Shown here: positions 3,483-41,688 of the stretch, one piece after another
Layout of the letters: each line of letters starts with the position of its first letter
How positions within the stretch are numbered: the stretch's first letter is position 1
The notes under the pieces: generated by a model
The model's database searches: none
Told to the model about the DNA's origin: nothing
Seen by the model: only the letters and a program-made list of their open reading frames with translations
Made by a program: the position numbers and the translations under genes
Source: a virus
Taxonomy: Duplodnaviria > Heunggongvirae > Uroviricota > Caudoviricetes
DNA: 64,000 bases
Reading direction: 5' to 3' (one strand)
IMG/VR virus record: IMGVR_UViG_3300022305_001387
Coordinates: 1 to 64,000 of that record

Positions 3483-3871
3483 AAAATAAATTAACGCATC
3501 ATGACGCAAAAAGAATTTTGCAATGGTGCATGGATACATATGGAAAAAGCAAATGCAATGGTAATTTCCCAGCCATAGAATTCAAAAAGCCAGATCATAG
3601 TCAGCAAGACTATGCTGGCTACTATGATGAGGACGAAGAACTAATATTTGTTAACAAAGATCTGAATACAACCATTGAAGAATTAGCTAAAACTATTATC
3701 CACGAATATACTCATTATGTTAAGCATCCAATGAAAGATTATTATACTTTGGCACGGTATTTGAAGCATGATAGTAATCCGATGGAGATCGAAGCATCAA
3801 AGATAGAGAAGCGCGACTATAAGAAATGTTTAAATGAGATAAAAAATCGATGCAAAGGCCAAAAAAATTGA
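3479..3871 (+). CDS. putative HExxH zinc-metallopeptidase-like protein
   Basis: Motif TIIHEYTHYVKH (HExxH); 130 aa. Confidence 0.4.
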   Translation: MKNKLTHHDAKRILQWCMDTYGKSKCNGNFPAIEFKKPDHSQQDYAGYYDEDEELIFVNKDLNTTIEELAKTIIHEYTHYVKHPMKDYYTLARYLKHDSNPMEIEASKIEKRDYKKCLNEIKNRCKGQKN

Positions 3872-5834: not shown

Positions 5835-6095
5835 ATGACTAAGAAAGAAATTAAAAATGAAATTAACAAAGCGGTGTACATATATGCCGAATCATTAGGT
5901 TACGATATGTCAGACGATAATGACGGATCATGCGTAACATTCTCCAAACCCGATAGAAAAGATGCTTACGATTGTATCGAATACAGTCGTTCGTATCACG
6001 AAACGTACGTTGTAAATTGGTGCAGCAATGAATTAAAATCAGACGCAGATATAATCAACGAATTTGCAAAACAACAACAATTAAATTATCAATAA
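5835..6095 (+). CDS. hypothetical protein (86 aa)
   Basis: ORF preceded by AATAAAAATAAAAGTTATG. Confidence 0.5.
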   Translation: MTKKEIKNEINKAVYIYAESLGYDMSDDNDGSCVTFSKPDRKDAYDCIEYSRSYHETYVVNWCSNELKSDADIINEFAKQQQLNYQ

Positions 6096-6105
6096 AATAA
6101 GAGTT

Positions 6106-6351
6106 ATGAAATACATACTGACAACTAATAAAGATATTTACGAAGATTGTTATGGCTCTAAGGCGCTTAGACACAAAAAAGGTGCTAAAGTATCAATGAG
6201 CGAAAAGTACTTCAACGAATTAAAACAAAGTGGTACAGTTGAATTAATGTCAGGCTTCGGTGAATATATATCTACTGCTAAATACGCACTATCAGACTTC
6301 GAATCAGAAGTAACTGTCGAAAAACAAATTAATCAAAAAATAAAACTGTAA
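6106..6351 (+). CDS. hypothetical protein (81 aa)
   Basis: ORF preceded by AATAAGAGTTATG. Confidence 0.5.
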   Translation: MKYILTTNKDIYEDCYGSKALRHKKGAKVSMSEKYFNELKQSGTVELMSGFGEYISTAKYALSDFESEVTVEKQINQKIKL

Positions 6352-6357
6352 TAATTT

Positions 6358-6618
6358 ATGAACAAAGCTTTAATTACCACAGCATTTCAATTGTATGTAG
6401 ACACAGTTCCTATGGAAACAATGTCAGCAGATCATCCAGAATTTCACGATCTGTATTCCAAAGAGTGTCAACTATTCAATCTTCTCAGACAAATGGATTG
6501 GCAAGAATTAGAAGATTATAAATACAAAGTTAGAATCTATAATATCGATCATGGCATTTCAAACGAAAACAAGTGGTCTAAAGAAGATCTATATGAAGAC
6601 GAAGATCAAAATTATTAA
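6358..6618 (+). CDS. hypothetical protein (86 aa)
   Basis: ORF in track. Confidence 0.5.
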   Translation: MNKALITTAFQLYVDTVPMETMSADHPEFHDLYSKECQLFNLLRQMDWQELEDYKYKVRIYNIDHGISNENKWSKEDLYEDEDQNY

Positions 6619-6637
6619 TCAATAAAAAATAAAAGTT

Positions 6638-6807
6638 ATGAAGTTTCAAGAAAAAGGCAGCACTGCCAAAAAACATTTTCAAATTAGTTTAATCAAATCT
6701 ATTATTCGTATCTTCGCATGCGTATATCTTTGTTATGGAGATTATGTAGGAGCAGGTATTGTACTCGGTATTGCTGAGCTGCTTGGTATCTATGAAGAAA
6801 TTGCTTA
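6638..6807 (+). CDS. small hydrophobic protein (56 aa)
   Basis: Not in track (<60 aa); preceded by AAAAATAAAAGTTATG; hydrophobic stretch IIRIFACVYLCYGDYVGAGIVLGIAELLGI. Confidence 0.35.
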
Positions 6808-6835
6808 ATCAAATAATCAATAAAAAATAAAAGTT

Positions 6836-7084
6836 ATGAAAGTAAAATTAGAAATGTGCAAGTGCATCAAATGCGGTAATGATATGCCGCTCCTTCGTAA
6901 GATAAAATATGGTTATAAGAGTTGCATAAACTGTTCCACTGTTCAACCGGTTGGTGGAGTGCAAATCGCTAATCATAAAACAGGAAACGAGATACAAATC
7001 ATGCCAATGGAATTGGCGAATAGAATGAATACTCTAGCTTCAAGACAAGGGTACGGAGTTTGTTCTGGAATGAAACATAGTTAA
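6836..7084 (+). CDS. zinc-ribbon-like protein, paralog of 12501..12716
   Basis: CKCIKCGN...CINCS and shared ..HKTGNEIQIM.. with 12501 (..HKTADSIQII..). Confidence 0.5.
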   Translation: MKVKLEMCKCIKCGNDMPLLRKIKYGYKSCINCSTVQPVGGVQIANHKTGNEIQIMPMELANRMNTLASRQGYGVCSGMKHS

Positions 7085-7103
7085 TTAATAAAAAATAAAA
7101 GTT

Positions 7104-7358
7104 ATGAACGAAAAAGAAAAAACAATATTGACTGCTCTTGCAGTTTTGATAGGCTTGGCACTACTTTCAAGTATGACATCATGTATGTCTTCGAAAGACA
7201 TCTCAGGCAGAGATAGTTTAATTTCAGGTGCTAACCACAAATGCTCAATAAAAAGATCAATGAGATATTCCACATGGGAATATGCATCGCCTAATGTGCA
7301 GCTCATGATATCGCATAACAAATCTAATATGATTTTTGAAATAAATAAAAAGAAGTAA
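7104..7358 (+). CDS. putative lipoprotein / membrane protein
   Basis: N-terminus ILTALAVLIGLALLSSMTSC looks like a signal peptide with a lipobox-like Cys. Confidence 0.45.
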   Translation: MNEKEKTILTALAVLIGLALLSSMTSCMSSKDISGRDSLISGANHKCSIKRSMRYSTWEYASPNVQLMISHNKSNMIFEINKKK

Positions 7359-32775: not shown

Positions 32776-33609
32776 ATGTCACAATCAGTATCGCCTAAGG
32801 CACAATCGTTTAAAGCAGGAGCAATCAATTCAATCAGCATGGAAGTAGCCAAGCAACAGGCACCAGCCATCTTCGCTACCGAACCCGCATCGTATATCAA
32901 CCAGAACAGGTATCACTTCACACCTACCTTCGAGATCATAGACATGATGAAGGATATGGGTTATGCATTAACCGGAGCCAAGCAGAGCAAGACTAAGATA
33001 CCTCTGCGTCATAATCACGGAGTACACATCGTAGAGTTCCAGCATCCTGATCTGTATGTAAAGGACAGCACTAACAACGAGATAGAAGCCAGACCTACCA
33101 TCGTTATGGTTAACTCATCAGATGGCTCTAGACCGTTTGACTTTCAGATGGGTATGTTCAGATTGGTATGTAGTAATGGCCTAATCGTTAAGAGCAAAGA
33201 CTTAGGTGGCTTCAAAGAGAGACACACCAAATATAACTTCACTGATCTCAAGGCCATGATCAGCAGCAAAGTAGATTCATTACCTAAGACCATAGAGAAA
33301 ATTAATACATGGACTGGCATAGAGATGGATGCCAAGACCAGACACGCATTCGCAGTAGAAGCTCTAGCTCTCAGATTAGGCAATGATCGTCAAGCAGAGA
33401 CCTACGAGATTCATTCAATCCTGTCCGCTAAACGTAAAGAAGACGAGCCAAACAATCTATGGTGCACATTCAATCGTGTACAAGAGAACCTGATCAAAGG
33501 CGGCTTTCAAATCAACGAAAGGCAAGCACGCCCTATCACCAACCCTTGGCAAGACCTACAGTTGAATCAAAGCCTGTGGACATTAGCTGAAAAGTACGAA
33601 GCCTGTTAG
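32776..33609 (+). CDS. DUF932-like protein
   Basis: VNSSDGSRPFDFQMGMFRLVCSNGLIV resembles the ..HDGS..F....G.FRLVCSNG motif I associate with DUF932 proteins of phages/ICEs (recollection, not a search). Confidence 0.45.
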   Translation: MSQSVSPKAQSFKAGAINSISMEVAKQQAPAIFATEPASYINQNRYHFTPTFEIIDMMKDMGYALTGAKQSKTKIPLRHNHGVHIVEFQHPDLYVKDSTNNEIEARPTIVMVNSSDGSRPFDFQMGMFRLVCSNGLIVKSKDLGGFKERHTKYNFTDLKAMISSKVDSLPKTIEKINTWTGIEMDAKTRHAFAVEALALRLGNDRQAETYEIHSILSAKRKEDEPNNLWCTFNRVQENLIKGGFQINERQARPITNPWQDLQLNQSLWTLAEKYEAC

Positions 33610-36875: not shown

Positions 36876-36994
36876 AGTCAGATGGTGAAATGGTAGACAC
36901 TATGGCAAGTAACTGAATCCTGAAGGCTGCAACCTAATGGCAGTAAGTGAACCCATACCGGACGCGGTTGTAGGTTCGATTCCTACTCTGACTA
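36876..36994 (+). tRNA. tRNA-like gene 1 (119 nt; class-II-type D arm, long interior)
   Basis: Acceptor AGTCAGA/TCTGACT+A, D region GGTGAAATGGTAGACAC, T arm GTAGG-TTCGATT-CCTAC, stem-loop ACCG-GACG-CGGT before the T arm; ~30 nt longer than canonical, anticodon arm not placeable by eye. Confidence 0.5.
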
Positions 36995-37010
36995 CTAAAA
37001 AATAAAAGTT

Positions 37011-37113
37011 ATGAGAAATTTTGATAAAGAATTTAAAGATTGGAAATCTGAGATGATAGGGTTTTTATTAGCTGGTTTCATCTTAGGAGTTTGTTTTGGA
37101 ATATTAATATAGA
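37011..37113 (+). CDS. small hydrophobic peptide (33 aa)
   Basis: After AAAAAATAAAAGTTATG; IGFLLAGFILGVCFGILI. Confidence 0.3.
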
Positions 37114-37121
37114 TATTATTT

Positions 37122-37227
37122 AGTCAGGTGGCGGAATAGAGCAGACGCTAAAATAACGAGTGGACAGCGTGCCATTGGGGAAGAGCCATAAAAGTTACGC
37201 ATACAGGTTCGAATCCTGTCCTGACTA
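37122..37227 (+). tRNA. tRNA-like gene 2 (106 nt)
   Basis: Acceptor AGTCAGG/CCTGACT+A, GGCGGAATAGAGCAGACGC D region, T arm ACAGG-TTCGAAT-CCTGT; long interior. Confidence 0.5.
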
Positions 37228-37229
37228 CA

Positions 37230-37392
37230 GACTTTCACCTATGGCTGTGCAAAGAACTGGTGAAACCCATTAGGAGCCGCAGACTCATTGAATGGGGGCG
37301 TAGGCAACATGAACCTACAACGGTAGAGTGCCTGTAACCGGGTATACCGGCTCCGCAAGAGACCGGGTGACCGTGGAAATCTCTACCAACAT
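37230..37392 (+). other. GC-enriched structured spacer between tRNA-like genes
   Basis: GGTAGAG...CTCTACC long-range pairing, CCGG-GTATA-CCGG hairpin, GTAGG..CCTAC; the track ORF 37328..37513 here looks spurious. Confidence 0.25.
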
Positions 37393-37481
37393 AGTCAGGT
37401 GGCGGAATTGGTCGCTAGTTAATAATAAGGGTCAGTGCTTAGCTCCCGAAAATGATACAGGTTCGATTCCTGTCCTGACTA
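37393..37481 (+). tRNA. tRNA-like gene 3 (89 nt; Leu-like class II 5' half)
   Basis: AGTCAGG-TG-GCGGAATTGGTCGC closely resembles the bacterial tRNA-Leu 5' half; T arm ACAGG-TTCGATT-CCTGT; acceptor CCTGACT+A; central region atypical. Confidence 0.55.
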
Positions 37482-37502
37482 CTAATCAAAAAATAAAAGT
37501 TT

Positions 37503-37718
37503 ATGACAATTGAATTTATCAAAGAAACAAAAGCAAATGGCGACCAATTGTATTACACTAAAGTCGATGACATGTACATTAGTTCAACACTATCGTTTAA
37601 CATAGACGAAGCAAAAGCAATGTACGATAACGTAGTAAAAAACAACGGTAAGTACGTTACTATAGAAGTATTAGAATCAGTAGAGATAGATGATGCAACT
37701 GGTGGTGAAGTATTCTAA
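37503..37718 (+). CDS. hypothetical protein (71 aa)
   Basis: After AAAAATAAAAGTTTATG. Confidence 0.5.
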   Translation: MTIEFIKETKANGDQLYYTKVDDMYISSTLSFNIDEAKAMYDNVVKNNGKYVTIEVLESVEIDDATGGEVF

Positions 37719-37721
37719 TAT

Positions 37722-37794
37722 GCCGCGTTAGAAAAATTGTTAAGTCGTCTCCCTTTCACAGAGAAGATTACGGGTTCGAGTCCCGTACGTGGTA
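37722..37794 (+). tRNA. candidate tRNA (73 nt), anticodon loop CTTTCAC (UUC, Glu?)
   Basis: Acceptor GCCGCGT/ACGTGGT (two G.U), T arm ACGGG-TTCGAGT-CCCGT, anticodon stem TCTC/GAGA; weak D stem. Confidence 0.45.
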
Positions 37795-41103: not shown

Positions 41104-41688
41104 ATGAAAACTTTACTAACTATTGTATTAGTGTTTTTGTTTTCTTTGACAAAGGCACAAAATCCGGATACAGTTCAATACAATGCTACTAATCTATCTA
41201 TATATCAAGTAGCAAATACTCCCGGAGTAGTTTACACATGGACCATTGCCTACCCAGGAATTATCCTTAGTGGACAAGGCACTAACACAATCACGGTCGA
41301 TTGGGGATTAACGAATCCCGGATACATTATAAATGCAGTTTCAGTGTTTGCGACAAATCAATCTAGTTGCAAAAGTCCAATTTCTTTTTTGGACATTTTC
41401 GTACCAATACCGTTATCTTCTATTTTTTTTCCAAACAGTTTTACTCCAAATGGTGATGGATTGAACGATGGGTGGTCTCCAATCACTTTCAATATAGTCA
41501 AAATCAAGTGGCAAGTTTACAACAGATGGGGTGAGTTAGTCTATCAGTGTAGCGATATAGGAAAAAAATGGAATGGAGAATACAAAAATGAGAAACAGCC
41601 AATAAGCAATTTTGTTTTTCAGTGTTGGTGGAAAGGGGTTGATGGTAAAACTGGATTTCAAAAAGGAAACCTAATATTAATCCGATGA
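41104..41688 (+). CDS. secreted protein with T9SS type-B (gliding-motility-associated) C-terminal sorting domain
   Basis: Signal peptide; C-terminal FFPNSFTPNGDGLNDGW...VYNRWGELVY...WNG...GNLILIR matches the T9SS type-B CTD consensus. Confidence 0.75.
   Translation: MKTLLTIVLVFLFSLTKAQNPDTVQYNATNLSIYQVANTPGVVYTWTIAYPGIILSGQGTNTITVDWGLTNPGYIINAVSVFATNQSSCKSPISFLDIFVPIPLSSIFFPNSFTPNGDGLNDGWSPITFNIVKIKWQVYNRWGELVYQCSDIGKKWNGEYKNEKQPISNFVFQCWWKGVDGKTGFQKGNLILIR

Follow-up and report, generated by a model that had tools for sequence, protein, structure and literature searches.

Several RNAs are known that have the shape of a tRNA and put it to a non-decoding use, and they are the systems against which we compare three long tRNA-like elements (copies 1 to 3) found in a 64,000-nucleotide (nt) stretch of a virus of the Caudoviricetes (IMG/VR record IMGVR_UViG_3300022305_001387, positions 1 to 64,000; hereafter the window). 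In plant RNA viruses with aminoacylatable tRNA-like structures at their 3′ ends, and in the tRNA-microRNA chimeras of murine herpesvirus 68 (MHV68), the tRNA shape recruits host tRNA enzymes. These systems, however, belong to eukaryotic viruses, consist either of 3′-terminal pseudoknotted structures or of a tRNA followed by hairpins, and have no sequence relationship to the long elements. In the engineered tRNA scaffold, reportedly introduced by Ponchon and Dardel in 2007, the anticodon arm is swapped for an RNA of interest, and the product is said to undergo RNase P and 3′-end processing and to resist nucleases. That laboratory construct, based on tRNA-Lys or tRNA-Met, has the same design principle as the one we propose here, although the long elements are natural, Leu-derived and phage-encoded, come with more than 100 variants of the inserted part, or payload, and have a processing and stability that are predicted from sequence.

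Transfer-messenger RNA (tmRNA) also joins an acceptor/T domain without an anticodon to another domain, and its charging does not depend on an anticodon, but the long elements have neither G3-U70 nor a tag reading frame, possess a full D arm and are far smaller. As an identity for the window elements themselves, tmRNA was rejected: ARAGORN called none in the window, the pair 3:70 is U-A and not G3-U70, and the centre is only 40-69 nt long. YrlA is modular as well, with a tRNA-mimicking acceptor/D/T module that keeps the 15:48 Levitt pair and a second functional module (PMC4201824), and the long elements likewise join an acceptor/D/T unit to another module. YrlA differs in being circularly permuted, with a Ro-binding stem made from its termini and a loop that closes its 'acceptor'; it also contains the motif GNCGAAN0-1G and lies beside rsr, whereas the long elements have the topology of a tRNA. 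The closest conceptual analogue is, in our judgement, the 'species 1' RNA of T4 (rnaC, which occurs with rnaD), a stable non-decoding RNA of 139 nt that, like the long elements, is encoded on the same strand inside a phage tRNA cluster. Its T arm (CCGGG-UUCGAAU-CCCGG) and its ends, which can pair like an acceptor stem, add to the likeness. It is not homologous, since the covariance model R1 that we built for the long elements (see below) gives it 24.2 bits over only a part of its length, below the 33.2 bits given to the T4 tRNA-Leu, and it differs in having no Leu-type D arm, an imperfect acceptor stem and a single gene instead of a multi-copy family with interchangeable centres.

We consider it probable, though well short of certain, that copies 1 to 3 are non-decoding small-RNA genes in which a chassis derived from tRNA-Leu carries a variable structured payload. 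The chassis would retain those parts of a tRNA that are read by the maturation and charging machinery (a 7-base-pair acceptor stem, A73, U8/A14/A15, a Leu-type D arm, U48 and the T arm), and a payload of about 33-95 nt would take the place of the anticodon stem-loop and sometimes also of the variable arm or the D loop. A sequence-only reading of the window had reported three long elements of 119, 106 and 89 nt, and both coordinates and lengths proved exact, with all three on the + strand. They have in common the 5′ start AGTCAG(A/G)TGG(T/C)G(A/G)AAT and a 3′ end composed of the T arm, (T/C)CTGACT and A. Exactly three occurrences of the 5′ motif AGTCAGRTGGYGRAAT were counted over the 64 kb, compared with 0.17 expected, and none of 100 shuffles reached three. 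The 7-base-pair acceptor stem and the discriminator base are present in all three copies, while the D arm with U8, A14 and G18G19 and the UUCRANY T loop are complete in copies 1 and 3; in copy 2 the D stem is present, and its D loop AAUAGAGCAGA is atypical and without a GG dinucleotide. The covariation of the acceptor and T stems that the same reading had noticed between copies was confirmed as double, pair-preserving changes: the acceptor pair 7:66 is A-U in copy 1 and G-C in copies 2 and 3, and the T-stem pairs 49:65 and 50:64 are G-C and U-A in copy 1 as against A-U and C-G in the other two. To these can be added the D-stem pair 11:24, which is U-A in copy 1 and C-G in copies 2 and 3.

These elements are not confined to the window. 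When the conserved 5′ and 3′ blocks were joined into one pattern and scanned over uncultured-virus contigs, at least 120 stretches were recovered with at least 133 distinct elements of 84-145 nt (loci are designated here by L and a number, and cover at most 14 kb of a contig); over the family as a whole, lengths run from about 84 to 190 nt. We aligned 62 members, none of them from the window, with only the acceptor, D and T helices imposed (alignment A3). In this alignment 99.2% of the cells are paired and 10 of the 15 pairs have changed on both sides, a value as high as which was found in none of 500 shuffles, while controls in which the helices were slid are only 28-39% paired. The acceptor helix taken singly is 99.8% paired, with both sides changed in five of its seven pairs. 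The covariance model R1 was built from A3, so that the window copies lie outside its training set, and it separates them (58.2-82.6 bits) from genuine phage tRNA-Leu genes (about 40-54 bits). We defined membership of the family by an R1 score above about 55 bits, a Leu-type D arm, A73, U48 and the lack of an anticodon arm, and all three window copies fall within this definition. Over 100 loci, R1 returned 201 matches at E≤1e-5, and in the locus with the most copies (L065) 13 elements alternate with small open reading frames (ORFs) within 5 kb, downstream of a block of ordinary tRNA genes.

The window copies thus belong to a large, phage-restricted family of small-RNA genes, and the RNA structure of the chassis is under selection. 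A search of 50,697 cultured-phage records yielded no member, the only matches being T-arm fragments, and a set of 185,579 bacterial and archaeal species, represented by one genome each, gave six matches, all of them in contigs of metagenome-assembled genomes. With these six as the only matches in bacterial or archaeal assemblies, a suggested role of the elements as integration targets is left without support; the roles of processing signal and of decoy, suggested along with it, are possible ones. Rfam 15 holds no model for the family, and a full-text literature search found no description of it, an absence that is only suggestive given the incomplete coverage of such a search. The coordinates of the window features are collected in Table 1.

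Table 1. Features of the tRNA-like cluster in the window, with the evidence for each.
Feature	Position	Strand	Evidence	Parts and remarks
tRNA-like copy 1, 119 nt	36876..36994	+	RF00005 no report; family model R1 58.2 bits, E=9e-11	Acceptor AGUCAGA/UCUGACU; Leu-type D arm GUGAAAUGGUAGACAC; T arm GUAGG-UUCGAUU-CCUAC; discriminator A, then C
Copy-1 payload	36901..36969	+	Cloverleaf-constrained fold and sequence inspection	
33-aa hydrophobic small ORF	37011..37112	+	ORF list	Between copies 1 and 2, 16 nt past copy 1
tRNA-like copy 2, 106 nt	37122..37227	+	R1 82.6 bits, E=3e-16; RF00005 31.5 bits	Acceptor AGUCAGG/CCUGACU; T arm ACAGG-UUCGAAU-CCUGU; discriminator A
Copy-2 payload	37149..37202	+	Orthologue alignment A4	Conserved pseudoknotted module
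Non-coding spacer, 165 nt, G+C-rich	37228..37392	+		Separates copy 2 from copy 3; may be an RNA of its own or a degenerate element
tRNA-like copy 3, 89 nt	37393..37481	+	R1 69.8 bits, E=2e-13; RF00005 34.3 bits	Acceptor AGUCAGG/CCUGACU; short D arm GCGGAAUUGGUCGC; T arm ACAGG-UUCGAUU-CCUGU; discriminator A
Copy-3 payload	37416..37456	+	Constrained fold	
71-aa ORF	37503..37718	+	ORF list	21 nt past copy 3, ends 3 nt before tRNA-Glu
tRNA-Glu(UUC)	37722..37794	+	RF00005 49.8 bits over full model; ARAGORN call	Ordinary tRNA with weak D stem

The long elements do not decode, as they have lost the anticodon arm. Copies 2 and 3 score above the gathering threshold of the tRNA model RF00005 (29 bits), but they do so through the acceptor, D and T arms only, and the alignment jumps 45 and 37 nt, respectively, at the place of the missing anticodon arm; for copy 1 this model gives no report even at E≤10. 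Of the long elements in the window, ARAGORN called copy 3 alone, as a tRNA-Ile with the implausible anticodon AAU. The sequence-only reading, which had been unable to place a normal anticodon arm in any of the three, was therefore right on this point. Over the family, a strict search (a 5-base-pair stem with a 7-nt loop Y-U-NNN-R-N) found a canonical arm in 5 of 172 members, compared with 3.05 expected after shuffling of the centres. Without introns, ARAGORN called 35 of 133 family elements, many with implausible anticodons or with anticodons of 2 or 4 nt, and in its intron mode it called 121 of the 133 and spread them over some 20 isotypes, orthologues of copy 2 being labelled His, Thr or Val. 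The fourth element of the cluster, 73 nt long, has the UUC anticodon that had been read in it and is a normal tRNA-Glu with a weak D stem; it lies outside the long family, since R1 gives only a 16-bit partial match to its T arm.

One might still take the long elements for functional tRNA-Leu genes with short introns or tolerated inserts, whose mature RNA would decode leucine codons. The D arm, A73 and the position of the variable arm are of the Leu type, copy 1 has a helix resembling an anticodon stem at the canonical position, 9 of the 35 calls that ARAGORN made without introns are Leu, and a short member of the family (L015, 5644-5733) has a near-canonical CAA loop. We nevertheless hold this to be very unlikely: the canonical arm is found at chance frequency, the anticodons proposed in intron mode do not agree even between orthologues, the inserts of 20-50 nt fall far below the size of a group I intron, and the same phages already possess ordinary tRNA-Leu(UAA) and tRNA-Leu(UAG) genes, which have normal anticodon and variable arms and lie in the same loci as the long elements. 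An Rfam scan matched no intron model, nor any other non-tRNA family, to the window elements, and in the L065 array it found no family besides tRNA. Intron-bearing tRNA was accordingly rejected, and of the two options that had been offered from sequence, an insert- or intron-bearing tRNA and a tRNA-derived structural RNA with another role, it is the second, with its framework under selection, that has held.

The part between the D and T arms varies most. Folds constrained to the cloverleaf usually place one or two helices there, the first mostly starting 1-2 nt past the D stem, as an anticodon stem would, and the last mostly ending 2 nt ahead of the T stem, in the position of a class-II variable arm. 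Across the family these centres are mostly unalignable and of different lengths, and they form at least 107 payload clusters at a loose k-mer threshold. Under our proposal, payloads would be wholly different among paralogues and conserved among orthologues. The payload motif of copy 2 occurs in at least 45 IMG/VR viral stretches, and in the alignment of 25 orthologues (A4) a hairpin formed by GUGG (37160-37163) and CCAU (37172-37175) exposes a loop, GCGUG (37167-37171), which pairs with UACGC (37196-37200) to form a pseudoknot. The 5-base-pair pseudoknot helix is 100% paired in these orthologues, and two of its pairs change on both sides (CG in 20 and UA in 5; GC in 22, GU in 2 and AU in 1). 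An isolated pair, C37157-G37185 (38:66 in the alignment), also covaries (UA in 15, CG in 8, UG in 2). Columns of A4 fixed by the search pattern are uninformative, but the covarying columns were free of it. In the copy-2-type set it is the acceptor and T stems that show compensatory variation, around a constant payload; in L128, for example, the acceptor is AGUGGUA/UGCCGCU. The segment ATAAAAGTTACG of copy 2 had been compared with a gene-start motif, a likeness that does not survive, as its UACGC is one strand of the helix that covaries among orthologues. Copy 2 also looks somewhat like the sarcin-ricin loop (ACGAGUGGAC), but this likeness was rejected, because the positions concerned vary among orthologues.

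For copy 3, the constrained fold gives an A/U-rich single strand UAGUUAAUAAUAA, a hairpin GGGUCAGUGCUUAGCUCCC (37429-37447) and a 9-nt tail GAAAAUGAU, in this order. A stem GCTAG...TTAGC that had been proposed for this copy overlaps the 3′ strand of the D stem, and the constrained fold favours the hairpin instead. The payload of copy 3 was met with once more, in L208, in an orthologue that is 94% identical as an element and whose flanks have nothing in common with the window; hairpin and 3′ segment agree in every base, and the only differences within the payload are two U-to-C changes in the A/U-rich segment. In copy 1, a helix like that of an anticodon stem, UAUGG (36901-36905) with CCAUA (36953-36957), closes 47 nt and not a 7-nt loop, and is followed by a Leu-type variable hairpin, CCG-GACG-CGG (36958-36967). 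The enclosed stretch contains an imperfect direct repeat of about 20 nt (CUAUGGCAAGUAACUGAAUCC and CUAAUGGCAGUAAGUGAACCC). Of these payloads, that of copy 2 is conserved and covarying and that of copy 3 is conserved between unrelated flanks.

Although the 107 payloads are otherwise unrelated, GTAAGT is found in 11 of them against 2.0 expected, and GTAAG in 22 against 7.3; fragments like AGGTG are weakly enriched too. No motif is universal, and we found no consistent structural context for the GTAAG-type motif. Copy 1 carries two sequences of this over-represented type, GCAAGUAAC and GCAGUAAGUG. Some members of the family have insertions in the D loop, in addition to or in place of the central payload; an extra hairpin or long insertion between A14/A15 and G18G19 was seen in L197 (4910-5017), L170 (7936-8089) and L189 (7356-7501). 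We also encountered truncated half-elements (L047 at about 2420-2530, L132 and L150), which keep a copy-2-type payload, the T arm and the 3′ acceptor strand, the 5′ acceptor strand and the D arm being replaced by unrelated sequence.

The chassis is constrained in its sequence as well as in its structure. The acceptor strand is AGTCAGG in 141 of the 169 distinct long elements, A73 is present in 157 and U48 in 156, and in independent loci that were anchored on the Ro60 protein, and not on an RNA pattern, the strand is AGTCAGG or AGTCAGA in 10 of 14. Genuine tRNA-Leu genes of the same loci are far more diverse, with 55 different acceptor strands among 70 genes. Because the acceptor of the long elements is nearly fixed while those of tRNA-Leu vary, the data point to a sequence-specific reader, to homogenisation by recombination, or to both. 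The positions conserved in the chassis (A73, U8/A14, A15:U48, G18G19 and A20a) are those of the leucine identity set of Escherichia coli, for which leucyl-tRNA synthetase (LeuRS) needs neither the anticodon nor the variable arm (PMC9976931). Since the chassis carries this whole E. coli-type set, leucylation of the chassis RNAs is plausible.

The same observations bear on the idea that the elements are decaying pseudogenes of duplicated phage tRNA-Leu genes. Unalignable centres, the degenerate D loop of copy 2, the orphan payload of copy 1 and the half-elements are what such decay would leave behind. However, strong purifying and compensatory selection acts on the chassis, unrelated phages have kept the payloads of copies 2 and 3, orthologous payloads covary, and a single acceptor sequence is retained in those 141 elements while the acceptors of genuine tRNA-Leu vary freely, so that we give pseudogenes hardly any credence.

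A further alternative is a role in DNA, in which the conserved 25-nt halves with their inverted-repeat ends would provide portable sites of homology or recombination, through which small accessory-gene cassettes are shuffled between phages. In L130, a 192-kb viral contig, positions 729-1200 correspond to 36995-37229 of the window. Its copy-2 orthologue is 98% identical and its orthologue of the 33-aa ORF has 93% nucleotide identity, but the two stand in the opposite order to that of the window, with junctions at the borders of the elements. The stop codon TAG of this ORF overlaps with the beginning of the element that follows; that element is another kind of tRNA-like RNA, about 135 nt long, and it resembles a sequence downstream of the Ro60 gene in L175. 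The altered order in L130, the copy-3 orthologue between unrelated flanks, the half-elements and the sheer number of copies with nearly identical ends would all suit recombination sites. Against this, compensatory changes that include strand-specific G-U pairs keep the pairing on the transcribed strand, the positions of tRNA tertiary structure (U8, A14, A15, U48 and the T loop) are conserved, and all elements are co-oriented with tRNA genes. We therefore regard a DNA-level role as a quite unlikely explanation of the family, although it could coexist with a function of the RNA.

The genomic setting is that of tRNA genes. Family elements belong to tRNA islands, and their closest neighbour of tRNA or tRNA-like type has the same orientation in 100 of 100 cases; in the window, tRNA-Glu lies 240 nt downstream of copy 3 on the same strand. 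U predominates at position -1 and A73 is almost always followed by C, while CCA is not encoded. The co-orientation and these flanking bases fit maturation by the tRNA pathway. According to the reading that we prefer, that of non-decoding RNAs with payloads, the elements would be co-transcribed with adjacent tRNAs and small ORFs and excised by RNase P and the tRNA 3′-end pathway, with trimming and CCA addition (C74 being encoded and CCA not). The tRNA fold would then stabilise the excised RNA, and the payload would be its working part, binding some protein or RNA.

A simpler use of the same cleavages would be punctuation in cis, the tRNA-like folds being RNase P and RNase Z cleavage signals that separate the mRNAs of small ORFs, and the released RNA having no role. 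Many elements do lie close to ORFs: an ATG is found in the window 16 nt past copy 1 and another 21 nt past copy 3, the elements of L065 alternate with small ORFs at gaps of 6-18 nt, and the lack of the Bacteroidota-type box TAnnTTTG on the + strand between 35500 and 38200 fits co-transcription. Yet a cleavage signal needs no conserved payload, and those of copies 2 and 3 are kept in unrelated contexts; genuine tRNAs nearby could already do the work. Moreover, an ORF starts 5-60 nt downstream in 53 of 163 cases and at 222 of 815 random positions, and because such starts are hardly above random, pure punctuation is not a general explanation. It seems to us unlikely, if less so than a function in DNA. 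Scans for sigma-70 promoters and terminators gave nothing above chance, and in some related loci a Bacteroidota -7 box TAnnTTTG lies just upstream of an element.

Ro60 genes, too, occur in tRNA islands. We found 43-44 phage loci (L165-L207) with a Ro60/TROVE gene inside large tRNA islands, at about 6001-7320 in most. In several of them the gene is followed by YrlA-like sequences (GGGUAGCAACGUAAGGGUUACUUC..., a T arm and a stem capped by CGAAAGCG) and by YrlB-like sequences, the former of which ARAGORN miscalls as a 72-nt 'tRNA-Leu(taa)', for example at 6897-6968 in L101. The long elements themselves could be imagined as Y-RNA-like partners of a phage or host Ro60 (Rsr), as is the tRNA-mimicking YrlA. 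In one lineage (L101, L148 and L158) only 101 nt separate a copy-2-type element from the end of an upstream Ro60 orthologue (TROVE 30.6 bits at a cut-off of 23 bits; Ro60 vWA domain 26.2 bits), in about 10 of the 43-44 Ro60-anchored loci family elements lie within 6 kb of rsr, and YrlA too has tRNA-like D, T and acceptor modules (PMC4201824). On the other hand, several rsr loci bear apparent YrlA- or YrlB-type RNAs of their own directly after rsr, and payloads show no enrichment of the Rsr-binding motif GNCGAAN0-1G, which is present in 4 of 107 where 1.8 would be expected. The elements end at the acceptor stem whereas the ends of YrlA form the Ro-binding stem, Rfam gave no YrlA match in the window elements (E≤10) or in the L065 array (E≤1), and TROVE is absent from the 25 listed of the 27 Pfam families found in the 88 ORFs of the window. 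The chance that the family consists of Ro60 partners appears slight.

Other RNAs accompany the elements in these islands. A recurrent hairpin consists of GAC, a 5-base-pair stem, the loop GAAAGA or GAAUAGA, the closing stem and then 4-6 nt that are often A-rich. It was found in 23 distinct occurrences, none being found in reversed sequence, and it is absent from the window. In 8 of the 23 it sits 4-6 nt upstream of the 5′ end of an element, and its stems covary (CCUCG/CGAGG, GCAGG/CCUGC, UGAUG/CAUCA and others); the loci include L074, L091, L096, L065, L108, L117 and L208 (reverse strand, about 3500-3520). Directly 3′ of elements in L004, L057, L015 and L208, which are unrelated contigs, there is a conserved non-coding sequence of about 75 nt (CCTAGCCTTTGTTTGGGGCAAGCG...CAAGTCAATACTAAAC), which in L208 precedes the GAC hairpin, and another recurrent 3′ flank, 'cacagtgttggctacaagcaccgagtagggtagtacactt', is found in L004 and L066. 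These recurrent 3′ flanks are probably further uncatalogued RNAs of tRNA islands. A GOLLD RNA (L205, 3519-3933, 280.7 bits) and a freshwater-1 RNA (L167, 2713-2774, 86 bits) occur in the same phage tRNA islands as the Ro60 genes and the family elements.

Within the window, the cluster lies among small ORFs without a family match. The 71-aa ORF has no PHROG match and no relative in viral contigs. The spacer between copies 2 and 3, for which a gap of 6 nt before copy 3 is stated, has a fold of -49 kcal/mol with a z-score of only -1.0 and includes a GUAGG...CCUAC hairpin that resembles a T stem and has a loop of 9 nt; Rfam gave no match for the spacer, and the family loci collected gave no homologue. 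The phage is myovirus-like, and among cultured phages Flavobacterium phage immuto comes closest to it, with only 45% amino-acid identity in the baseplate wedge protein. A DNA search of cultured phages returned no relative of the window phage, and the flanking proteins have none in viral contigs or metagenomes. Pfam domains in the window include a CHU_C type IX secretion signal with a PKD-like domain (41104-41688) and DUF932 (32776-33609), as well as UvdE, a SegE-like GIY-YIG endonuclease, OmpA, SPFH/Band 7, thioredoxin, YkuD and Fib_succ_major. Given the relative immuto, the CHU_C and Fib_succ_major domains and the TAnnTTTG boxes of related loci, a Bacteroidota host is likely.

Several results count against small-RNA genes with a functional payload and have to be set beside the evidence above. 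The payloads fold better than shuffled sequences to a modest degree only (mean z of -0.73). The payload of copy 1, with its variant of the scaffold, has no relative in any collection searched, so that selection on it is only a possibility. An antisense or guide role of the payloads was rejected, since none of the window payloads is complementary to another part of the window over more than 10-12 nt, which is within the shuffled range. No protein neighbour is conserved: when the 2,288 ORFs within 4 kb of elements were clustered, the top cluster was present in only 17 loci, and the neighbours of copy-2-type elements differ between lineages, with none conserved. By eye only, the top cluster looks terminase-like. 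The extreme identity of the chassis could come partly from homogenisation of the DNA and not from a partner that binds the RNA, and the missing G18G19 in the D loop of copy 2 and of its L130 orthologue argues against leucylation of copy 2. Finally, processing, stability, charging and the function of the payload are all biochemical steps that we infer.

A stronger form of the proposal, of which we are doubtful, is that the family would be a tRNA display platform. The chassis would be matured, CCA-tailed, leucylated and bound by LeuRS and EF-Tu, and more than 100 payloads would in this way be delivered as phage effectors (inhibitors, decoys or reprogrammers) to the host translation apparatus or to defence or toxin proteins that recognise tRNA, with AGUCAGG/CCUGACU serving as the identity element for a dedicated partner.

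For annotation, the family accounts for odd "tRNA" calls in viral metagenomes, with their undetermined isotypes, implausible anticodons and supposed introns. It also raises the questions of what reads the fixed acceptor stem, whether leucylation takes place in vivo without an anticodon, and what binds the more than 100 payloads. If the proposal is true, phages of freshwater Bacteroidota-type hosts would hold a large and diversified arsenal of small RNAs in the body of a tRNA, a natural counterpart of the engineered tRNA scaffold, and the family would represent a third architecture of non-decoding tRNA mimics, after tmRNA and YrlA.

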